In this document: positions 40,592 to 60,537 of the stretch, in pieces | Position numbering within the stretch: position 1 is the stretch's first letter | Layout: each line of letters begins with the position of its first letter | Notes under the pieces: model-generated | Databases searched by the model: none | Told to the model about the DNA's origin: nothing | The model's input: the letters and a program-made list of their open reading frames with translations, nothing else | Program-made: the position numbers and the translations under genes | NCBI GenBank assembly: GCA_035687245.1 | Contig: DASRYH010000028.1 | Coordinates: forward strand, 45,525-109,524 | Reading direction: 5' to 3' | Origin: Coriobacteriia bacterium | GTDB taxonomy: Bacteria; Actinomycetota; Coriobacteriia; Anaerosomatales; PHET01 | Length of the DNA stretch: 64,000 nucleotides

Positions 40592-42787
40592 CTAGTTCAG
40601 CAGGCCCTTCTTGGCGAGGTTGACGTGGCAGTTCGCGCAGAAGGTCGGCTTGTGGCAGCCGAAGCAGCCATCGGTGCCGTTCTTCTTGACGACGTTCGGG
40701 TGGTAGCGGACCCACGGCTTGTCGGCCGGGGCGCCCTCGTGGTGGCACGAGTTACAGAACGCCGTCTTGTGGCAGTTCGAGCAAGTGGACTTGCTCAGCT
40801 TCTTGTCGGCAAAGCTCTTGGCGTGCGCCCCACCGTTGCCGGCGCCCTTGGCTCCGAAGCCATCGGGGTGCGGCATCTCGAGCTTGTGGCAGCTGCTGCA
40901 GAACTTGGCGTTCGGCAGTGCGGCAACTTCGCCCTTGTGGCAGTAGGTGCAGATCTCGCCATTGTCCTTGTAGAGCTGGACGTGCTTCGCGTCCTTGTTG
41001 CTGAAGTCCCTGATGAACTTGGACTGCTTGTGCGACGCCGGAACGACGTTGCGCTTGTTGTGGCACTTCACGCAGTCGTTCTTGGTGTGGCACTTCTCCA
41101 CACAGCCAGCAGCACCATTCTTGTTGACCGAGCCACCGTGGATGCTGATCCACGACTTGCTGGTCGACGAACCAATGTGGTGGCAGTTGCTGCAGACTTC
41201 CTTGAACTGGTGGCACTTCTTGCACTGGCTCGAGTTCTTCTTGCTGCTCACGTGGTTCGTCTTGAAGTCAGCCGGGTGCGGCATCTCAAGCTTGTGGCAG
41301 CTCTTGCAGAAGGCACCGTTGACGCCGCCAGCGTGGCAGACATCGCAGGCCTCGATCGACTTCTGAGCCTCGACGGCGTGCTTGCCGCTGACCTTCGCCG
41401 GCGTCTTGCCGTAGACGGTCATGGCGCCAGGAGCACCAGGCTTGATCCAGCCAGCCTGCTTGTGGGAGGCCGGGAAGACCTTCTTCGAGGTGTGGCAGTC
41501 GGAGCAGAACTTCGCTTCGTGGCACTCAGCAGTACAGGTCTTGATGCCCTTCTCGGCAACAGCCTTCGGGTGCTGCTTCGCGGTCCACGGCTCGGTCGCG
41601 ACGAACTTGTAGCCGCCGGCCTTGGTGCCGTGGTGGCAGTTGTCGCAGAAGTGCGACTCCTCGTTCTTGCCGTGACACATGATGCACTTCTTCGGGAACT
41701 GCTTCGACATTGCAGGGTGGCCCTGCGCCGGATCGGCAGTCGCAGTCGGCTCCTTGAAGGCGGCGGGGTGCGGCATCTCCATACCGTGGCAGCCGTCGCA
41801 GAACTGCTTCTCTACGTGGCATGTGCCGCAGTAGTAGATCGACTCGACCTTCGGCAGCTCGCCGCCGATAGAGTGCATCTCGTCGCCAGGGTTCTTCTTC
41901 TGCTCTTCGAGCAGCGCCTTGACCTCTTCGCGAGCAACGGGCTTCTCTTCTCCGCCACCGGAGGCATAGGCCTTCTCGGTACCCAGAAGGCTCTGCTCCT
42001 TCTCGGCTGCGCCTTCTTCACCCTCGGCGCTCGCCTCAAGAGCCTTGGCGGCCTCTTCCTTGGCCTCCTTCGCCATCTCGGCGTGGCCCTTGGGGTAGAA
42101 GTCCTTCTCGCGGTGATTCTCGGGCTTCAGTTCGAAGTTCGAGGGGTGGCACGCGCTACAGCGACCAGGAGCCGCTGCGCCGTCCTCAAGACCGTGGCAA
42201 CGGAAGCAAGCGGTCATCGAGGTGAAGACCAAGTGCTTCGTGTTGGGCTGCCCGGTCTTCGGATTCGTAAGCGTGAGCTTGAAGTCCTCGGTGTGGGCGA
42301 TACGGTTGTGGCAGACCGGACAGGCCGCGTTAACCTCCGCATGAACGGCGTGATCGATCTTCACGCCCTCAGTCGGGGTGACCTTGCGGGTCTCCATGCT
42401 GTGACACTGGGTGCACTTGTCGCCCGTCATCGTGAGCGCGACCTCGGACTCCCCGTTGAGCGGGAGGTCGTAGTCGTCACGAACGGTCAGGTACAGCTCA
42501 CCCAAGGCCTCAGCCTTGTGCAGGATGAAGATGACCGGGTTCGCGTTGACCGGCATGTGGCAAGCCATACAGCTTACTTTGGCGTGGGACGAGTGTTCAT
42601 AGGCAATGATCGTGTCGTCCTGAACCTTGTGGCAGGCCTCCGCGCAGAACCAACGAGTCGAAGTCACCCCCAATACGGGAACCATGACCCCGGCAATCAC
42701 CAGGACCGCTACTAGCGCCCAGATGATGTACCGTGGCCGCCGGACCGGATCCTTGAATCCGGCCAGGGAGATCTTCGCCATATTCAT
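40592..42787 (-). CDS. Membrane-anchored multihaem cytochrome c (22 CxxCH + 2 CxxxCH motifs); NapC/NirT-like N-terminal module
   Basis: 731-aa ORF with one N-terminal TM helix (YIIWALVAVLVIAGVMVPVLGV). Motifs counted by eye: CAEACH, CMACH, CTQCH, CPVCH, CFRCH, CSACH, an acidic/Lys linker, then 18 more in three modules. Confidence 0.85.
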   Translation of the reverse strand: MNMAKISLAGFKDPVRRPRYIIWALVAVLVIAGVMVPVLGVTSTRWFCAEACHKVQDDTIIAYEHSSHAKVSCMACHMPVNANPVIFILHKAEALGELYLTVRDDYDLPLNGESEVALTMTGDKCTQCHSMETRKVTPTEGVKIDHAVHAEVNAACPVCHNRIAHTEDFKLTLTNPKTGQPNTKHLVFTSMTACFRCHGLEDGAAAPGRCSACHPSNFELKPENHREKDFYPKGHAEMAKEAKEEAAKALEASAEGEEGAAEKEQSLLGTEKAYASGGGEEKPVAREEVKALLEEQKKNPGDEMHSIGGELPKVESIYYCGTCHVEKQFCDGCHGMEMPHPAAFKEPTATADPAQGHPAMSKQFPKKCIMCHGKNEESHFCDNCHHGTKAGGYKFVATEPWTAKQHPKAVAEKGIKTCTAECHEAKFCSDCHTSKKVFPASHKQAGWIKPGAPGAMTVYGKTPAKVSGKHAVEAQKSIEACDVCHAGGVNGAFCKSCHKLEMPHPADFKTNHVSSKKNSSQCKKCHQFKEVCSNCHHIGSSTSKSWISIHGGSVNKNGAAGCVEKCHTKNDCVKCHNKRNVVPASHKQSKFIRDFSNKDAKHVQLYKDNGEICTYCHKGEVAALPNAKFCSSCHKLEMPHPDGFGAKGAGNGGAHAKSFADKKLSKSTCSNCHKTAFCNSCHHEGAPADKPWVRYHPNVVKKNGTDGCFGCHKPTFCANCHVNLAKKGLLN
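40625..41836 (-). repeat. Three tandem intragenic hexahaem modules (about 110-130 aa each)
   Basis: Each module has the pattern CxxCH-x4-9-FCxxCH(K/G)(L/M)EMPHP ... CxxCH-x4-7-CxxCHH ... Cx2-3CH-x4-CxxCH. Modules 1 and 2 are each followed by V(F/V)PASHKQ. Approximate residues are 320-440, 481-588 and 613-721. Confidence 0.8.
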
Positions 42788-42931: not shown

Positions 42932-44074
42932 TCATCCTGCCACGTCTGAGAGCTCGAGTAAGGCCGTTTCCAAGCGCCCAGCAGCTGCCGAAGACGTGTC
43001 GGAGAGCGTGAGCAACTCGTCTGCGATACCCGACAGCTGCTCCACTTCCCCGGTCTGAAGTCGCGACAGATGCGCTGTTTCGGCGGCTGCCGTTGCGGCA
43101 GTCGAACAGGTGTCGGCGACTTCGGCGAGCTGAGATGCGGTGCGCATCACGATCTCGCGCGACTCATCAACCATGAGGCGCATGCGCTCGGTCGACCCCA
43201 CCAGCGCGACCGCGCCCGACTGGAGTTCGTGGACAACGCGGCTGATTTCGGAGGTCGACTCGGTCACCGACTCCGCGAGATTGCGGATCTCTTCAGCGAC
43301 AACGGCGAATCCGCGGCCCGCGTCGCCCGCGCGCACCGCCTCAATCGAGGCGTTCAGTGCAAGTATCTTCGTCTGCTCGGCGATATCGTCGATGATCTCG
43401 AGCACTCCGCCAATGCGCTGGCCGTCGTAGCCGAATCGCTCAACGCGGTCGGCGGCATCACTCGAGTGGCGACCGATGCTCGCAAGGGTCACCGACGCTT
43501 CATCGATGAGCTGAACGGCGCGGCGGGAGTCTTCTCCGGCCCGCTCCGACGCCTCAAAGGCCTGGCCGGCGTTCTCCAGCACGTTGACCGCATTGTGCGC
43601 GAGTATCTCGGTCTCACGCCTCAGCCGCTCGTTCGTGTTGGCCTGCCGCTTCGTAGCACCTGCGGACTCGTCGGCGGTATGGCACAGTTCAGAAGCCCGC
43701 GCTCGCAGCATGCCGGAGCGCGACTGTGATTCGTCGAGGGTCACGCGCGCGAGATCGAACATGCGGCCAGCGCGCTGGAGCGCACGTTCGTCTCCGGTGG
43801 CGGCCGGGGCGCGCATTCTAAGCCGGGTCTCGGCGTCCTCCAGGACGCTCGCGCAGGCGTCTTCGCCGATTCTGTCACCGAACCATGCGACGGCCAGACC
43901 AGCACCCGCACCCATGCCTACGAACAACGTCGCGAGGACGATCGAGGCAACGACACTGCGCGGCGTCGTCAGCAGGCTCGCAAAGACCCACATCGCGACG
44001 CCTGCGGCAACGCCGATGCCGACTGCGTTGAAACGCAGCCGACCGCGCTCTTGCCACCAGTTGCTTGCAGTCAC
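42932..44074 (-). CDS. Methyl-accepting chemotaxis-type signalling protein with two TM helices and almost no outside loop
   Basis: C-terminal MCP signalling domain ([36 protein letters not shown]). I place the start at GTG 44074 (GAAGGG upstream). The longest ORF (to 44620) would run through the divergent promoter and the opposite-strand genes. Confidence 0.72.
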
Positions 44075-44192
44075 GTACCGACCCTTCAGGACACGGTGCG
44101 ATCTCAGCTTCAGCCGCGCGCGGGCACCCTTCCGTACCGCGACCCTTGATAAGACACTACGGTAGGGGTATCGGCCAATTACTTGCACGTTA

Positions 44193-44210
44193 TATACCCC
44201 TTGGGGTATA
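44193..44210. promoter_or_regulatory. Perfect palindrome TATACCCC-TT-GGGGTATA (operator candidate)
   Basis: 8-bp perfect inverted arms, 42 nt upstream of ATG 44252, in the divergent MCP / ferredoxin-operon intergenic region. Confidence 0.55.
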
Positions 44211-44251
44211 GTCAGCGAGCTCGGTTCGTCAAAGGAAGGAACTCCCGCATC

Positions 44252-44455
44252 ATGTCTGTCGTCACTATCGACACCGCCCGCTGCGATCGCTCGCCCGGTT
44301 GCCCGTCTCGCCGAATCTGCCCGACAGGCGCTATTGTGCCGATCGACGGCGGTGCCTACCCCGGTGCGAACGGGTACACGGTCATCGAAGAGAAGTGCTC
44401 CGGTTGTGCTGTCTGCGTGCGTGTGTGCGCGGGTGGCGCGTGCCGGATCGGATAG
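44252..44455 (+). CDS. Small Cys-rich 4Fe-4S ferredoxin-like protein
   Basis: [29 protein letters not shown]...[25 protein letters not shown] after AAGGAAGG. The second cluster motif is CxxCxxCxxxC. Confidence 0.6.
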
Positions 44456-44467
44456 AAGGAGCAGTTG

Positions 44468-44812
44468 ATGCCTAAGCCCGTCATCGTCGAGGTCTTCGAC
44501 GTTCCCTCCGCCTCCGACTGCTTCTCGGGTGGATGAGGCCCGTCCTGGTCTCCGGAGGAGATCACGGCCATCGTCCGCACCGAGCTTGAGCGCCGCTATG
44601 GTGACGACGCCCAAGTCCACTACTACAACACGCAGGATGACTCGGTTCGGCAGCAGTACGCCGCGCTGATCACTGAGATCGACGAGCGCGGCCTGCTCTA
44701 CCCCGTCACCGTCGTCGACGGCGTGCCCGTCTACGACGGCGCCGTGAGCTACCCGGCCATCATGCGCGCGGTCAACAACAAGCTGCTTGAACAGGAACAG
44801 ACCGCCAAGTAG
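44468..44812 (+). CDS. Candidate selenoprotein: ArsD-like thioredoxin-fold protein with in-frame TGA (codon 23)
   Basis: Not in the ORF track. ATG 44468 lies 6 nt after GAAGGAG. My translation: [114 protein letters not shown]. The TGA is at 44534-44536, and the frame stays open for 91 further codons with protein-like sequence. Confidence 0.6.
44537..44569 (+). promoter_or_regulatory. Candidate bacterial SECIS hairpin
   Basis: Starts directly after the TGA. Lower stem GGCC/GGCC (44537-40 with 44566-69). Upper 8-bp stem TGGTCTCC/GGAGATCA (44546-53 with 44557-64). G-rich apical loop GGA about 17-20 nt after UGA. Confidence 0.5.
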
Positions 44813-44839
44813 TACGCCGTTTGGGCTACACTTCGCCCT

Positions 44840-45985
44840 ATGCCGAGAGTCTCGCTTTCACGCTGCGCCGACTACTCCCCCGCACTCGTTGCCTCTTCGC
44901 TTGCCGAAGTGCTCGAGCCGCTGGGCGGTATGTCGGCCTTCGTGTCTCCCGGGCAGCGCGTACTGCTCAAGGTGAACCTGCTGTCGCGCGCGCTGCCTGA
45001 AAGGGCGGTCACCACCCACCCGGAGGTCGTACGCGCCCTTATCCGCGAAGTGAGGGCCTGTGGGGGCATACCCACAGTGGGTGACAGTCCCGGCGGCCCG
45101 AACAGTGTCGGCATGGTGAAGCGGGTGTGGGCGGACAGCGGTATCGGCAGTGTCTGCGCCGAAGAGAACGTGGAGCTGGTGCTCTTCGACGATGACGTCC
45201 TGCGCGTGCCCGCTCCTGACGCAACCCTCTACGGCTCCTTCAGCTTGGGACGCGCCGTCGTCGAGACAGACGTGCTCATCTGCGTGCCGAAGTTCAAGAC
45301 GCACGGCTTCATGATGTTCACGGGCGCGGTGAAGAACCTCTTCGGCTGCATACCGGGCCTTGAGAAGGCGCAGTACCACATCAAGGTGCCGGAGCGTGAC
45401 GACTTCGCCGACATGCTTCTCGACCTCATGCTCGCCTGCAAACCAGCGCTTTCTGTAATGGATGCAGTCGTCGGCATGGAGGGTGAGGGTCCCGCCGGGG
45501 GCAAGCCGAAGGCCGTTGGCGCGCTCATCGCTTCGGCGGACGCATGTGCGCTGGACCTGGTCGCATCATCGATGGCCGGCCTGGCGCCAGACGAGGTCTA
45601 CACGGTGAAGATGGCCGCGAAGCGCGGTATGTGCACAGACGATGTCGATGCCGTTGAGATCGCCGGTGCCGACTGGCGCGATCTTGCGCCCGACAGCTTC
45701 GAACTCCCCGCGGTGGACCTGTCCCGCAAGATGCCGCCGTGGCTGGGGAACCGGCTGCGCTCTTGGCTGACCGCCAAGCCGGTGCTGGAGAACAAGCCCG
45801 GCTGCACTCGCTGCAAGACCTGCCAAGACGTGTGCCCGGTCGATGCGATCGTAGTGACTGAAGATGGCCCGCAGTTCGACCGCGCCAAGTGCATCCGCTG
45901 CTACTGCTGCCAGGAGCTGTGTCCGCCGCAGGTCATCGGGCTGTCGGTGCCGCTTGTGGCCCGCGCGCTCTCCAAGCGCCGCTAG
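44840..45985 (+). CDS. DUF362-domain protein with C-terminal 2x[4Fe-4S] ferredoxin domain
   Basis: 381-aa ORF. N-terminal DUF362-like part (VLLKVNLLS...HPEVVRALI...GDSPGG). C-terminus [12 protein letters not shown]...[12 protein letters not shown]. Confidence 0.75.
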
Positions 45986-46001
45986 CCGAACCAGGTCTTT
46001 C

Positions 46002-46304
46002 TCAGTCGAGTTCGCGCCACCAGTCGACGAACATCCCCACGAGTCCCCGGTCCATGAAGACCTCCCACGCTGACTCTCCCTCGTGTGCCTTCGGCAGCGT
46101 GGCGTCGTAGGCGCGCCGGCGTCCGGGGTCGGACAGCACCTCGTAGGCGGCGTTGATGCGCTGCATGTCGGCCGTCGCGCGCTGGTGATCCTCGGCCGGA
46201 CGACGGTCGGGATGGTACTTGCGCACGAGCGCCTTGTAGGCGCGCTCCACGACCTCGGGCTCGGCGTCGCGCGTGACCTGTAGTGTTCGGTAGTGGTCGG
46301 GCAT
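46002..46304 (-). CDS. J-domain-only protein
   Basis: 100-aa ORF DHYRTLQVTRDAEPEVVERAYKALVRKYHPDR...INAAYEVLSDPGRRRAYD, containing the HPD motif. Confidence 0.75.
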   Translation of the reverse strand: MPDHYRTLQVTRDAEPEVVERAYKALVRKYHPDRRPAEDHQRATADMQRINAAYEVLSDPGRRRAYDATLPKAHEGESAWEVFMDRGLVGMFVDWWRELD

Positions 46305-46313
46305 CGCAGTCCC

Positions 46314-47222
46314 CTAAGACGGCGCTGGCTGCTGTGCGAAGCGCTCACCGAGCTCGGCGGCGACCACGCCCGCAAAGACGAAGCCGGCTCCCACGAACTG
46401 CAGCGGAGTCAGACGCTCGCCAAGCAACCAAGCAGCAAGCGCGATCGTGAAGAGCGGCTCGAAGGTCGAGACGACGGCCGCCTGCGAAGGGCCAAGCTTC
46501 TGAATGCCCTCCAGGTACAGAGTAATGGCGGCAAAGGTCGGAATGAGCACGATGAGGATGAGCAGCCACCACGCCTTCACCGACCAGCCGGCCGGTGAGA
46601 GCGACGCGGGCCCGTCCAGCACGATCGTGCCGACTACCGGCAGGATGACCGCGATGCCGAAGGTGTAGGCCATCATCGCGAAACGCGAGCGGCCCTCCAT
46701 CCAGCGGCTCGAGAGCAGATTGAAGAGCGTGTAGCCGACCGCGGCACCCAGGCCGAGCGCAATGCCTTGCCATTTGGCGTGCATGTCGCCGCTCCCCAAC
46801 CCAACCACCAGTGCGCAGCCGATGAACGTCATGACGACGGCAAGGCCCTGTTGCCAGCGCGCCTTGTGCCCGAGAAACAGCCAGCCGGCGATCGTGACCA
46901 GCGCAGGGTACGCGTAGAGAAGCACCGCGACGACCGACGCATCGGCGAAGCGAAGTGCGAAGAAGAAGCAGACGGAAGCGGCACCGTAGCCGGTCAGCGC
47001 GAGGATCGCGAAGCGACCGATATCTTGCCGAGTCACGAGCAGCGCACGCCTGTCGCGGACGGTGGCGACCACCGCGAGAAGCGTCGCGGCGATCACGAAA
47101 CGCCACGCCAGCAAGGGTAGCGGGCTTGCACCCTCCTTGTAGGCGAGCGGCGTGAGTACCGCGAGCGTGCCGAAGCATGCAGCGGAGACGATGACGGAGA
47201 TCAGTGACCAGCGGCGTTGCAC
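46314..47222 (-). CDS. EamA/DMT-family transporter
   Basis: 10-TM profile with two EamA-like halves. I chose the GTG start at 47222 (VQRRWSLISVIV...); the longest ORF starts at 47270. Confidence 0.78.
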   Translation of the reverse strand: MQRRWSLISVIVSAACFGTLAVLTPLAYKEGASPLPLLAWRFVIAATLLAVVATVRDRRALLVTRQDIGRFAILALTGYGAASVCFFFALRFADASVVAVLLYAYPALVTIAGWLFLGHKARWQQGLAVVMTFIGCALVVGLGSGDMHAKWQGIALGLGAAVGYTLFNLLSSRWMEGRSRFAMMAYTFGIAVILPVVGTIVLDGPASLSPAGWSVKAWWLLILIVLIPTFAAITLYLEGIQKLGPSQAAVVSTFEPLFTIALAAWLLGERLTPLQFVGAGFVFAGVVAAELGERFAQQPAPS

Positions 47223-47322
47223 GTGCGAGCTCCCTTTGTCCAAGTCGGTTTCACAACGTCCCATTCGCAAAGGCGCACGTCAACCGTGCTAGACTCGCGC
47301 ATCGCACAGGAAGGAGCCGCGG

Positions 47323-57136: not shown

Positions 57137-58447
57137 CTACTTGTCGTGGCAGCGCTCGCACACGCCGCGGTTGTCGGCACGGAGCAGAGCACTGGTGCCC
57201 TGGAGGCCGGCGGTTGCGGGATCGTCGTCCTTGTCAGGATCCACGCCAGCGATACCGTCACGCACGGGAACCCAAGTTCCTTCGGCGTTCTGGGTAAGGG
57301 AGGCAGCGGCCCAACCGTTCATGACGGCGGCAGAACCGTGAGCGTAGTGGCAGGTGAGGCAGCCAACCTGATTCTGGCGATTCGAGGCAGCGCCAGGAGT
57401 GACCTCCAGCGGCACGTGCTGGTCGAGGTTGCCATCAGCCTGAGCTGCAACCTGCAGGACGTCATCGCCCTGAACGAGCGTGATGTCGACCGGGTGACGG
57501 TGGCGAGGCTGCGAGCCGACAAGGCCAGCGCCCTCGTTCGTACCGTAGTCGTAGTTGCCGGTCTGGTTGTCGTACTGCTCGTGGCACGCAGCACACCAGG
57601 TCGACAGGGAGCCGACGCCGCCAACATAGGGGTTATCCATGCTGGAACGGATCTGCGAGCTACCCGAGGTGTAGTTCGGGACGTAGGCCTGCATCTGAGC
57701 CTGGCCGTCAGCGTGCTTCAGCCAACCGTTGTCCGAGTACGGGTAGTTGGTCTCAGTCGAGTAGACCATACCGTTCGGGGTGCCGTCGGGGTTGTAGCCA
57801 CCGACTGCGGTGTTGTTGACCGAGTCCTTCAGGAGGCGGTAGTTCGAGCTGCCGTGAGGATCGTGGCAGCTGGTGCAGGTCAGGTACAGCGAGTTGCCGG
57901 TCGTGGTGTTGCCAGCGCCCCACAGGATGCCCGTCTTCTCCATGGAGTGCGTGGAGGTGACGCCTGTGAGTGCCGGAGCCGCGTCGACTTCCCACTCGCC
58001 CAGCGTGCCCTTGTACATCGTCGAGAAACCGCCGCCGTTCAGCGGAGCGCCGAACGTGGAGCTCGTGACGTACGCGGTCGTGACGCCATCGTTGGTCGGG
58101 CCAACCTGGCCAGCGTAGCTGGAGGGGCCGCCATCGAAGATGCCCTCGACAACGTTCGTGGATGCGCCAGGAGCGTTGTCGCCGTGGCAAGCGTCACAGA
58201 ACTCCTGCATGGTGGCGGCGTCGCCGACCAGCAGGGCAGACGGGTTGTCTGCAGGGTCCCAGCCCGGAGGAGTGATCCTCGGGGTGAACGTCACGGACGA
58301 GAACGAGCTGTGAGCGCGGTGACAACCGGCGCAGGAGTCCGTGTCATCGATGTATCCGCCGTGCGGACCGAAGTTCGCGTACGCGGAGCCAACGACGGCG
58401 AGGGACAGCGCCAATACGAGCGTAAGTACTAGAACGAAACGCTTCAA
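57137..58447 (-). CDS. Secreted hexahaem cytochrome c, OmcS-like motif pattern
   Basis: TTG start at 58447 (RBS GGAGGTG, 17 nt after the large-subunit stop) gives signal peptide MKRFVLVLTLVLALSLAVVGSAYA-N. Six CxxCH motifs: CAGCHRAH, CDACH, CTSCHDPHG, WCAACH, CLTCHYAHGS, CERCHDK*. Confidence 0.85.
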   Translation of the reverse strand: MKRFVLVLTLVLALSLAVVGSAYANFGPHGGYIDDTDSCAGCHRAHSSFSSVTFTPRITPPGWDPADNPSALLVGDAATMQEFCDACHGDNAPGASTNVVEGIFDGGPSSYAGQVGPTNDGVTTAYVTSSTFGAPLNGGGFSTMYKGTLGEWEVDAAPALTGVTSTHSMEKTGILWGAGNTTTGNSLYLTCTSCHDPHGSSNYRLLKDSVNNTAVGGYNPDGTPNGMVYSTETNYPYSDNGWLKHADGQAQMQAYVPNYTSGSSQIRSSMDNPYVGGVGSLSTWCAACHEQYDNQTGNYDYGTNEGAGLVGSQPRHRHPVDITLVQGDDVLQVAAQADGNLDQHVPLEVTPGAASNRQNQVGCLTCHYAHGSAAVMNGWAAASLTQNAEGTWVPVRDGIAGVDPDKDDDPATAGLQGTSALLRADNRGVCERCHDK

Positions 58448-58464
58448 ATCTCTCACCTCCGTCG

Positions 58465-60537
58465 TTAGTGGATCGCGCAAGCGATGCAGGGGTCAAAGGA
58501 CTGGGCGATACGAGCGACCTCGACGCCACCGACGGTGGGGATGGACGCGCCACCCTGACCGGTGATGGTCTTGGTGTAAGTCGCACCCGTCGCGAACGGG
58601 GCACCGATGCATGCCTTCTCGATTGCACCATTCTGGCCAAGAACGTCCTTCGGCGAACCGTTCCACGTGGTGGGAACGATGCACTGATAGGCGGTGATCT
58701 TGCCGTTGTTGATGGTGATCTGGTGCATCAGGGAGCCACGCGGAGCCTGGCCTGCGCCCCAACCCTTCTTGATGCCGGTCGGGATCGACTTGTTGGCCCA
58801 GGTGGAACCAACGGTGTCGTTGGCGTTGACGCCAGCACCCGTGTAGGACTTGAGCTGGTTGATCCAGCTGCTGCTACCGAAGGACAGCGTGCCCAGAGGA
58901 GTCACGCTACCGTCGGACTTGCTGATCTTGCCAATCATGCGCTGGACGAGCACGAAGGACTGCAGGGCGCGAGCGCGCAGGCGGTCCATCGTGGACAGGC
59001 CGGCCTGGATGCCGAGGACCCAAGTCTGGATCGCGGCGACAAGACCCATGCCGTCGGCGCCGAACGGATACGCAACCGGGTCGACTCCGAAGAGGAACTT
59101 GCCCGAGTTCACGATGCCGTTGACGATCGTCGGAGCGATGATGTCGAGGTCGAGACCGCCAGCCTTGACGTAGAGGTCATAGCCCGAGACGGTAGCCGAC
59201 GTCGGGATGCTGGTGGCGAGATCGACGCCATCCTGGAAGTAGCCGTTGACGAACATGTCAGCCATGGGACCGACCTCGCAGGGCTTGCCAGCCCAGCGCG
59301 GGGCCTTCATGTAGCTGTAGCCGTCGTCACGAGCCGGCTTGGTGCGAGTGATGTCACCAGGATAGGTGGCCTCGGCACCAGCGAACGGACGAGATGCGGT
59401 CGTCGCATAGACGGCAGCGTCGTCGACGTACGGCACGTAGCGCGAGTTGGAGATGTCCTCAGTGAGGTTCGTCGGGACAGAGAGCGCGCCCGACAGGAAC
59501 TTGCTGATGACTTCGCCCTTATTCGCGACCGTGAAGTTGTACACGCCTGCAGGAGCACCAAGCTCGAGCACGCCGCCCTTGATGGCGAGATCGTCGTTGA
59601 GCTCAGGGAACTGACCCCAGACGAGGAAGCGGCCAAGACCAGCGCCGAAGCCGACGGGATCGCCGGGGGTGTAGAAGAAGCTGCGGGTCTTGTTGTGATC
59701 GTTGTCGAAGCCCGGATACAGGAAGCCGAGGACCAGAGCGATCGGCACGTACTCGTTGACGATGAACTTGCCGACTTCCTGGATGATCTCCTCGTACTTG
59801 TTGCAACGCTGAGTCAGGTTCTCCGTGCCATCGTTGGTGACGCCGCCACCGACGAAGCAGGAGGTCATCGGCATACGACCGGCGAACAGCGCGCCAGCCT
59901 CGAAGGTGAGGCGGCGAATGCGCAGTGCGCGAACGTAGCTGATGATGACCGCGTCCCAGATCTGCATGGTAGCCGTGTTGGCAACCGGCACAACGCCAGC
60001 GGTAGCGCTGACGGTGTCAGCCGAGAACGAGCTGCGCAGAACGGGGTTGTAGAAGGCTTCCGCGAAATACGGAGTCCAAGGCGGCATGTTCGGGCCCTGA
60101 ACGTAGCTCGGGGCAGCCAGGTGATAGAAGTGCGTGATGCTCGACATCAGGAACTCGGCCGAAAGGACGAGGTTACGGATGAGCAGAGCCTTCGGCGGAA
60201 TGCCGTAGGGGCTGCCAACCGCTTCGTTCAGAGTCGAGAACGTGATGTGAGAGCGGCTGTAGCCGAGAACAGAGTCGACCGCGTACGTCGAGGTCAGACC
60301 GTGCGGGACCGGGCAGACACCGCAGATGCGCTGCACGAAAGTGATCGCATCGTTGGCGCCACGGCCAAGCAGGAAGTTCTCGAAACCACGCCACAGGTTA
60401 CCGTGGGCGTTGGCGTCCTTGATGAAACCGTCAGAGCCAACTCGGACCTTGACTCCCAGGTGACCCTCGATACGAGAGACCGGGTCGACCTCGCGGTCCG
60501 TCGAGCCAGCGACGGTGTTGAGATTCCATACACTCAT
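58465..60537 (-). CDS. [NiFe]-hydrogenase large subunit
   Basis: 690-aa ORF with N-terminal motif RICGVCPVPH. The C-terminal DPCIACAIH is followed directly by the stop. Confidence 0.95.
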   Translation of the reverse strand: MSVWNLNTVAGSTDREVDPVSRIEGHLGVKVRVGSDGFIKDANAHGNLWRGFENFLLGRGANDAITFVQRICGVCPVPHGLTSTYAVDSVLGYSRSHITFSTLNEAVGSPYGIPPKALLIRNLVLSAEFLMSSITHFYHLAAPSYVQGPNMPPWTPYFAEAFYNPVLRSSFSADTVSATAGVVPVANTATMQIWDAVIISYVRALRIRRLTFEAGALFAGRMPMTSCFVGGGVTNDGTENLTQRCNKYEEIIQEVGKFIVNEYVPIALVLGFLYPGFDNDHNKTRSFFYTPGDPVGFGAGLGRFLVWGQFPELNDDLAIKGGVLELGAPAGVYNFTVANKGEVISKFLSGALSVPTNLTEDISNSRYVPYVDDAAVYATTASRPFAGAEATYPGDITRTKPARDDGYSYMKAPRWAGKPCEVGPMADMFVNGYFQDGVDLATSIPTSATVSGYDLYVKAGGLDLDIIAPTIVNGIVNSGKFLFGVDPVAYPFGADGMGLVAAIQTWVLGIQAGLSTMDRLRARALQSFVLVQRMIGKISKSDGSVTPLGTLSFGSSSWINQLKSYTGAGVNANDTVGSTWANKSIPTGIKKGWGAGQAPRGSLMHQITINNGKITAYQCIVPTTWNGSPKDVLGQNGAIEKACIGAPFATGATYTKTITGQGGASIPTVGGVEVARIAQSFDPCIACAIH

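Follow-up and report, generated by a model that had tools for sequence, protein, structure and literature searches.

We analyzed three plus-strand genes in a stretch of 64,000 nucleotides (nt) from a Coriobacteriia bacterium (contig DASRYH010000028.1), called the window below. They encode a small ferredoxin, a thioredoxin-fold protein with an in-frame UGA, and a DUF362 protein that carries an iron-sulfur (Fe-S) domain. Coordinates checked in the window confirm that the genes are separated by gaps of exactly 12 and 27 nt and lie in a mostly minus-strand region, as the initial annotation had it. The UGA very probably encodes selenocysteine (Sec), its insertion being predicted from sequence features. 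The middle gene appears to represent an uncatalogued selenoprotein family in the ArsD/DUF1462 superfamily. The features of the locus are listed below; the Shine-Dalgarno element and the −10-like hexamer were read from the sequence.

44194-44209, no strand assigned: palindromic operator ATACCCCTTGGGGTAT, with the appearance of a CsoR-family type 2 site (TAC, G/C tract, GTA)
44207-44212, plus strand: −10-like hexamer TATAGT, in overlap with the operator's right half
44252-44455, plus strand: ferredoxin gene, 67 amino acids (aa), 8 Cys, Pfam Fer4
44456-44461, plus strand: Shine-Dalgarno element AAGGAG of the middle gene, 6 nt ahead of its ATG
44468-44812, plus strand: middle (selenoprotein) gene, 114 codons, in-frame TGA at codon 23
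44534-44536, plus strand: in-frame UGA, residue 23; the aligned codon is TGA in relatives
44546-44564, plus strand: hairpin UGGUCUCC-GGA-GGAGAUCA, resembling a bacterial selenocysteine insertion sequence (bSECIS), as judged from fold, covariation and frozen synonymous sites
44840-45985, plus strand: DUF362 gene, 381 aa, Pfam DUF362 plus a C-terminal 2x[4Fe-4S] domain

The in-frame UGA is conserved in relatives. Related genomes were scanned with one genome per species, which gave 80 loci. Nearly all of them are labelled as metagenome-assembled genomes (MAGs) of Coriobacteriia or Actinomycetota, and some records are mislabelled. The aligned codon is TGA in all 80 loci and in 29 metagenome homologues (25 loci plus L086, L087, L091 and L092). 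In the 80 loci the UGA is flanked in a single frame by conserved sequence, which reads C-[FWY]-[SG]-G-G on the 5' side and G-P-S-W-S-P-E-E-I on the 3' side. The window motif is C18-F-S-G-G-U23-G-P-S-W-S-P-E-E-I. The Cys is invariant, and the Gly codons 5' of the UGA (GGN GGN) vary freely at their third positions. The 22 codons before the UGA are therefore translated in the same frame. A Cys is aligned to the Sec site in the full-length homologues P0121, P0127, P0136, P0140, P0142, P0149 and P0150. Their motifs are CCSSGCCGP in P0121, C-x4-C-G-P in P0127, P0136 and P0142, and C-x3-C in P0140, P0149 and P0150. An exhaustive search of 1.84 billion representatives returned only 32 clusters, including Cys forms and further UGA forms. 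Searching metagenomes for the TGA plus hairpin pattern added 25 Sec forms with the motif C-x(3,4)-U-G-P..S.EEIT, which fall into at least six subfamilies. A screen of the whole window for further in-frame TGA genes gave only noise, except at 44534. TGA terminates ordinary genes of the window, such as pilT and the MCP gene, and the organism therefore uses the standard code.

A hairpin is located downstream of the UGA. It has an 8-bp stem and a 3-nt GGA loop, 17 nt separate the UGA from the loop, and the minimum free energy (MFE) is −9.3 kcal/mol (z −3.1). The published bSECIS model describes a loop of 3-9 nt with a G within its first two nucleotides, a stem of 4-16 bp, a distance of 16-37 nt from the UGA and an MFE of −7.5 kcal/mol or lower (PMC13188914). 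The window hairpin lies within every one of these limits. Third positions are nearly frozen in codons +5 to +9, with an entropy of 0-0.3 bit among 81 sequences and Ser written as TCT in 80 of them. In the invariant Gly, Pro, Ser and Thr codons flanking the hairpin, the same sequences give 1.0-1.75 bit. In 17 diverse sequences the stem is paired in 97.5% of cells, whereas sliding it as a control gives 42-62%. The number of compensatory pairs is two, with 0.3 expected. Distant low-GC homologues keep the stem through double changes from G-C to A-U and from C-G to U-A. A lower extension of the hairpin in the window fold is not conserved in relatives and was dropped. The hairpin had not been described in the initial annotation, nor had the conserved operator or the seven invariant Cys of the ferredoxin, both presented below.

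Public databases treat the UGA as a stop. The GenBank/NCBI model P0002 (‘DUF1462 family protein’, 83 aa, 44561-44812) begins at a non-canonical ATC just past the hairpin loop. Among the 120 matches listed, all homologues but one are called as proteins of 66-86 aa that begin after the UGA, and the sole exception is called with the UGA read as Trp. Taken at face value, these calls would make the UGA a true stop and the real product an 83-aa DUF1462 fragment, or they would mark a decaying gene. No Sec machinery was seen in the window, which would fit: tRNA-Sec was not found in it, and Rfam at gathering thresholds returned tRNAs only. However, the codons before the UGA are under in-frame protein-level selection. 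A Shine-Dalgarno element and an ATG at 44468 precede them, and no canonical start follows the UGA. TGA is kept in all 80 species together with a hairpin conserved at the nucleotide level, and according to the structural model the short product would lack strand β1 and the active-site loop. We find a plain stop hardly credible. The short gene models of the P0002 type are most probably an artefact of an unrecognised Sec codon, and the 120 listed homologues show it with a single exception.

The middle protein has a thioredoxin fold. Its structure was modelled by AlphaFold2 on P0001, which is 72% identical and has a W at the Sec site (pLDDT 87). In the model, the Cys and the Sec position are located in a Gly-rich loop of lower confidence ahead of helix α1. 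The invariant Pro of Y-P-V-T corresponds to the cis-Pro. The fold, together with TGA in 80 of 80 loci, bears out the description of the middle gene as coding for a UGA-containing thioredoxin-fold protein. With U replaced by C, the sequence reaches 29.5 bits in Pfam DUF1462, above the cut-off of 25, and 18 bits in ArsD, where the cut-off is 27; no NCBIfam model matches it. In a Foldseek search with the P0001 model, the top PDB match was 1xg8 (S. aureus SA0798, DUF1462; E 6.8e-5, TM 0.68). Thioredoxins and the ArsD chains 3ktb and 3kgk followed at E values of 1e-3 to 7e-3 (4-7e-3 for ArsD). With the family profile, E was 7.5e-8 for 1xg8 and 0.05 for ArsD 3ktb. Aligned by hhalign with a genuine ArsD from an arsR-arsD-arsA operon, the family gave a probability of 97.2%, with Sec23 on Cys18 and Cys18 on Cys13.

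These comparisons place the protein between two known families. It shares its size and thioredoxin-like topology with DUF1462/YuzD (PF07315, SA0798, 1xg8) and scores above the gathering threshold of that family. SA0798 has C-x2-C, whereas the middle protein has C-x4-U, with the Sec aligned to the second Cys of SA0798. With ArsD (PF06953; 3kgk, 3ktb) it shares the C-x4-C/U-G-P spacing, which matches Cys13-x4-Cys18, and a C-terminal LP...DG...G.YP. Unlike ArsD, it falls below the Pfam cut-off and lacks the C-terminal Cys pairs, and the equivalent of Cys12 is never a Cys in Sec forms (81 sequences). Its gene lacks an ars operon and an ArsA partner; the partners are Fe-S proteins, and Sec stands in place of Cys18. 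The earlier label of ArsD-like therefore describes a real homology, but by Pfam the protein belongs to DUF1462/YuzD. In these features, the middle protein bridges ArsD and YuzD: it is DUF1462 by Pfam threshold and has ArsD-like motif spacing, and would not count as an ArsD. That ars genes are missing had also been noted; queries for ArsR, ArsD and ArsA, taken from the ars operon L085, found no tblastn match in the window (best E 0.17), arsB/acr3 not having been searched directly.

The likeness to ArsD raises the main alternative, in which the protein is a chaperone or buffer for soft metals or metalloids. The Cys-x4-Sec pair would bind Cu(I), or As(III), Sb(III) or Hg(II), and then hand over or sequester it. 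Ferredoxin and DUF362 would only keep the site reduced, or would be copper-tolerant substitutes for damaged Fe-S proteins. The alignment of Sec and Cys with Cys18 and Cys13 of ArsD is in line with such a role, as is the Gly-rich loop with its low model confidence. The gene of the Cys form P0142 is located directly after arsR-arsD-arsA, and the CC-x3-CC of the Cys form P0121 resembles the ArsD motif. Several catalogued selenoproteins handle metals (PMC13188914). A CsoR-type operator, and the CsoR-like neighbor of L086 with a C-H-C copper fingerprint, both discussed below, point the same way. However, the site would offer two chalcogen ligands only, with no Cys at the Cys12 position in any of the 80 Sec forms, and the Pfam score for ArsD stays under the cut-off. 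The surrounding genes include no ArsA, P-type ATPase or other acceptor, and in other lineages the recurrent neighbors are TrxB-type reductases. We regard the chaperone as possible but doubtful.

Thioredoxin systems, namely Trx with TrxB, ferredoxin-thioredoxin reductase (FTR) and ferredoxin-dependent flavin thioredoxin reductase (FFTR), offer a comparison for the preferred reading, in which the selenoprotein is a redox carrier. The fold, a redox-type pair at the start of helix α1 and a cis-Pro-like Pro are common to both. The middle protein differs in having no CxxC, and the Coriobacteriia locus contains neither an FTR nor a flavoprotein. The electron path from ferredoxin would therefore be direct or via DUF362. 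Catalogued thioredoxin-fold selenoproteins (Trx UxxC, Grx UxxC, SelW-like CxxU, Thioredoxin_3 Sec.1/Sec.2 and others) are likewise small, with Sec in a redox motif, a bSECIS in the coding region and Cys homologues (PMC13188914). They differ from the middle protein in superfamily, here ArsD/DUF1462, and in spacing, here C-x3-4-U-G-P. The 119 families and subfamilies of prokaryotic selenoproteins in a 2026 catalogue include no DUF1462, ArsD or C-x4-U entry (PMC13188914). Literature searches for DUF1462 with selenoprotein, ArsD with selenocysteine, YuzD, and selenoprotein with Coriobacteriia returned nothing relevant. Thioredoxin-fold selenoproteins as such are already known; a family of the ArsD/DUF1462 superfamily with a ferredoxin partner appears to be uncatalogued.

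The conserved core of the locus is the ferredoxin-selenoprotein pair, and DUF362 is a facultative partner. As counted by tblastn, 72 of the 80 loci have the ferredoxin gene directly upstream of the Sec gene; DUF362 is directly downstream in 36. Both genes are present in 32 loci, ferredoxin only in 40, DUF362 only in four and neither in four. A ferredoxin and/or an Fe-S DUF362 gene is thus adjacent in 76 of 80 loci. The ferredoxin-Sec-DUF362 arrangement is far beyond chance. Conservation of the three-gene unit in relatives, which had been proposed as a check, holds for the pair and is found for all three genes in 32 loci only. The gap between the ferredoxin and Sec genes has a median near 10 nt (48 loci). 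In seven loci a candidate start (GTG/ATG) of the longest DUF362 open reading frame (ORF) is located 4 nt upstream of the end of the Sec stop codon. The gene of the Cys form P0121, 51% identical, stands in the same order between ferredoxin and DUF362. The contigs of P0126, P0131, P0133, P0137, P0145 and P0149 are short and give little context. All-against-all clustering of neighborhood ORFs was swamped by spurious high-GC ORFs and captured general synteny only.

Such an arrangement could reflect mere synteny within one bacterial class, with no functional coupling between the three genes. All 80 loci come from Coriobacteriia-like MAGs, the wider neighborhood (cytochrome, VanZ, PilT) is conserved too, and DUF362 is missing in 44 loci. 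However, the ferredoxin pairing recurs with the Cys form P0121 in spite of its 51% identity. Another lineage has, next to a Sec homologue, a fusion of a thioredoxin to the same type of ferredoxin, as described below. The gaps are about 10 nt and only one operator is present; in some loci the candidate DUF362 start overlaps the Sec gene's end. We consider uncoupled synteny very unlikely. Because of the short gaps in the window, the ferredoxin gap of about 10 nt, the seven DUF362 start overlaps and the single upstream operator and −10-like element, we treat the three genes as one transcription unit. This assignment is part of the overall model given below, which we put at about an even chance.

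The ferredoxin is of an unusual type. It scores 22.2 bits for Pfam Fer4 (cut-off 21.1) and has the Cys pattern C11-x5-C17-x5-C23-P and C49-x2-C52-x2-C55-x3-C59. In 48 aligned orthologues, seven Cys columns are 100% conserved and the eighth (C64) is not. With only seven invariant Cys, one of the clusters would therefore have only three Cys ligands. Ferredoxins of the clostridial 2x[4Fe-4S] type contain two CxxCxxCxxxCP motifs (8 Cys), from which the first motif of the window ferredoxin deviates as C-x5-C-x5-C-P. In L032, a decayed remnant of the ferredoxin gene (1151-1444; …EERCTGCGRYATVCAP) is found upstream of the Sec gene. This shows that the ferredoxin was recently lost in some lineages.

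The same ferredoxin type also occurs joined to a thioredoxin. A protein of 214 aa in L106 (4110-4754 in its own re-oriented coordinates) consists of a C-x5-C-x5-C-P ferredoxin and a WCAPC thioredoxin, and L102 encodes one too. The N-terminal module of the L106 protein is 45-54% identical to the Coriobacteriia ferredoxin. By the Rosetta-stone argument, the fusion links this type of ferredoxin to proteins with a thioredoxin fold. In L106 the genes are ordered fusion, DUF302, Sec gene and TrxB; in L102 the fusion is followed, not immediately, by the Sec gene, TrxB and Trx_3. TrxB-like genes also adjoin the Sec forms L101, L115 and L119. The gene of the Cys form P0140 is located between trx and trxB, and that of P0149 is followed by a TrxB-like gene. 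As in thioredoxin systems, these neighbors in other lineages are of the NADPH type (HRRD motif). In the window and the 80 loci, ferredoxin occupies the place of the TrxB-like neighbor. Searches by tblastn for TrxB and ThiI-like proteins were negative in the window and the 80 loci.

A palindrome is located upstream of the ferredoxin gene. Its pattern, ATACCCC-NN-GGGGTAT, has a sole match in the window, where 0.02 are expected. Allowing up to two mismatches, 80 of 81 sequences contain it, upstream of the ferredoxin start at a constant distance of about 55 nt; in ferredoxin-less loci it directly precedes the Sec gene. In 894 kb, there are 80 matches with at most one mismatch, 79 of them at this position. 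The −10-like hexamer overlapping it reads TATAAT, TATACT or TATATT at the same place in relatives. A scan of 43800-46400 for consensus σ70 promoters and terminators gave no site. Because the −10-like box is conserved, we assign a putative promoter to it.

The palindrome matches both the Streptomyces CsoR consensus operator, ATATACCCCTNAGGGGTATAT (PMC3902906), and the S. mitis CstR operator, ATATACCCTTATGGGGTATAT (PMC8643695). A copper sensor therefore cannot be told from a persulfide sensor by the sequence of the site alone. As in CsoR, CstR and RicR regulons, a G/C-tract pseudopalindrome with TAC and GTA is located over the promoter, and a CsoR-like gene is found near the homologues L086, L112 and L118. 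The unit differs from these regulons in its X8 spacing and in the regulated genes, which are not copZ/copA or cst. The operator also precedes the Cys form L081 and the low-GC Sec forms L087, L091 and L092. In these four the spacing is the canonical TAC-X9-GTA, and clear −35 and −10 boxes either enclose the site or immediately precede it. In L112 and L118 the Sec gene is followed after 26 nt by the CsoR-like gene (C-x24-H-x3-C); in L086 the distance is about 115 nt. Cys33, His58 and Cys62 of the L086 protein have the spacing of a Cu(I) site, and CstR proteins lack the His of the CsoR copper site (PMC8643695). As a candidate CsoR-family site, the operator predicts that the unit is induced by copper or persulfide. 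The initial suggestion of persulfide or copper chemistry fits an operator of this type.

Several neighbors raise a further alternative, a sulfur or selenium relay. In it, the Cys-Sec pair would carry or reduce persulfide or perselenide under control of a CstR-type sensor. The enzymes served, for thiolation or cofactor maturation, would be the LarA-fold DUF362 here and ThiI-like tRNA thiolases elsewhere. A ThiI/tRNA_Me_trans-like PP-loop gene (NFACT-R_2) is located upstream on the same strand in 12 of the 25 metagenome Sec forms, all of one subfamily. The distance is 43-98 nt in eleven loci and 268 nt in L116. This arrangement hints at a link to tRNA thiolation or a sulfur relay, and P0127 adjoins an MnmA-like gene. 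L112, L118 and L086 have a divergent CoA-disulfide-reductase (CoADR)-like gene, located upstream in L112 and L118. The layout of these two, which unites the CoADR-like gene, the Sec gene and the CsoR-family gene, resembles published cst operons with a CoA persulfide reductase. The palindrome is nearly the same as the CstR operator of S. mitis, and DUF362 shares its fold with LarA, whose cofactor contains sulfur. However, no sulfurtransferase, rhodanese or cysteine desulfurase is found in the window unit or the 80 loci. The CsoR-like neighbor retains the His that CstR proteins lack, and the DUF362-LarA similarity is weak (TM 0.35). We judge a relay unlikely. The subfamily next to ThiI-like genes has the motif IPVFGSR.LDSC.GGUGPSWSLEEIT (L096, L099, L100, L104, L107, L108, L111, L113, L114, L116 and L120).

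The third protein of the unit is a clear member of DUF362 (Pfam 198 bits, cut-off 24, E 2e-58, residues 41-242). Its C-terminal 2x[4Fe-4S] domain (residues ~312-366), which Pfam recognises as Fer4 and a 4Fe-4S dicluster, contains two CxxCxxCxxxCP motifs. Among solved structures, none matches the DUF362 domain by sequence. In an AlphaFold2 model (pLDDT 77.5), the nearest PDB folds are LarA lactate racemases, at E 4e-5 and a weak TM of about 0.35. DUF362 and LarA/DUF2088 belong to the same Pfam clan, CL0471 (PMC11770544). The LarA superfamily (DUF2088) is thus the best structural match and shares the clan, but a cofactor or reaction is not known for DUF362. Unlike LarA, the DUF362 protein carries the 2x[4Fe-4S] domain, and the TM is only about 0.35. 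Model confidence is lowest in the loops that are best conserved (residues 161-184 and 214-220, the latter EGEGPAG); these may form a cofactor or substrate site. The DUF362 match of L004, L011 and L051 consists of two neighboring pieces that lie in different frames, which reflects a frameshift (pseudogene) or an assembly error.

In most lineages, on a further reading, TrxB encoded immediately downstream would reduce the Sec protein; in Coriobacteriia DUF362 takes that place, with the seven-Cys ferredoxin upstream, and could be a reductase. The unit would then be a new ferredoxin-driven system for reducing disulfides or selenosulfides, in which DUF362 is a non-orthologous replacement of thioredoxin reductase in Coriobacteriia. 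It would serve as a Se-dependent defence induced by copper or persulfide under a CsoR-family repressor. This bolder proposal is speculative and we think it distinctly unlikely; if true, the reductase role would be the first function for DUF362.

The best-supported model is a stress-inducible operon for a ferredoxin and a Sec redox carrier under a CsoR-type operator, with DUF362 as a facultative member, and we give it roughly an even chance of being right. A repressor of the CsoR/CstR type, encoded elsewhere in the genome, would hold the unit off. Cu(I) or persulfide and other reactive sulfur would inactivate it, and the unit would be expressed. The hairpin at 44546-44564 would aid decoding of the UGA, giving the Cys18-x4-Sec23 pair in the Gly-rich loop before helix α1. 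The pair would cycle between a selenenylsulfide and its reduced form, as in a thioredoxin-like thiol/selenol carrier. Electrons would flow from the co-transcribed ferredoxin to the selenoprotein and on to a target. In other lineages, an adjacent TrxB-type flavoprotein would be the reductant instead of ferredoxin. The DUF362/2x[4Fe-4S] protein may be the target enzyme or an alternative Fe-S entry for electrons. We favor the redox role because of the thioredoxin fold, the recurrent TrxB neighbors and the ferredoxin-thioredoxin fusion. The initial annotation had proposed a dedicated relay from Fe-S to a Sec/Cys pair. The Fe-S neighbor in 76 of 80 loci, the TrxB-type neighbors and the fusion agree with it; its DUF362 component is weakened by being only facultative.

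A number of observations weigh against this model. We know of no precedent for a plain ferredoxin that directly reduces a thioredoxin-like protein without an enzyme of the FTR/FFTR type. The Cys-x4-Sec pair is located in a flexible loop of low pLDDT, which is more like the metalloid loop of ArsD than a rigid CxxC. No more than 36 of 80 loci have DUF362 next to the Sec gene, and twelve metagenome Sec forms adjoin a ThiI-like sulfurtransferase gene, not a reductase. The spacing of the Coriobacteriia operator is TAC-X8-GTA, compared with X9 in characterised sites. The operator is absent from the 25 metagenome Sec forms, and tblastn found no CsoR-family gene in the window or the 80 loci. None of selA, selB, selC and selD is visible in the window or the loci.

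With these results the prokaryotic selenoproteome would gain a family that occurs in 80 or more species-level genomes and in several other lineages. They place ArsD-type and YuzD-type proteins on one continuum, where Sec can stand in for a key Cys. They also provide DUF1462/YuzD, and possibly DUF362, with concrete partners that can be tested, namely the ferredoxin, TrxB-type reductases and the CsoR-family operator. Copper and persulfide are suggested as testable inducers.

The genes flanking the unit are mostly on the minus strand and have no evident functional tie to it. VanZ and PilT are also among the surrounding genes. The other features are the following.

40592-42787, minus strand: 21-haem cytochrome (21 CxxCH) with an MtrC/MtrF-like domain
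42932-~44100: MCP gene, flanking the unit
46002-46304: DnaJ-domain gene, flanking the unit
46314-47270: EamA transporter gene, flanking the unit
57137-58480, minus strand: second multihaem cytochrome, with 6 CxxCH motifs

In most related loci the 21-haem cytochrome gene is likewise found in synteny upstream of the unit. No functional link was found between either cytochrome and the unit. TGA is the expected dominant stop codon at 64% GC, the GC content of the window. Among its long ORFs with high GC at third codon positions, TAG is the commonest stop, with 31 TAG, 18 TGA and 10 TAA. Database records from a Coriobacteriia MAG contain an identical ferredoxin and a fragment of the middle protein that is 99% identical.

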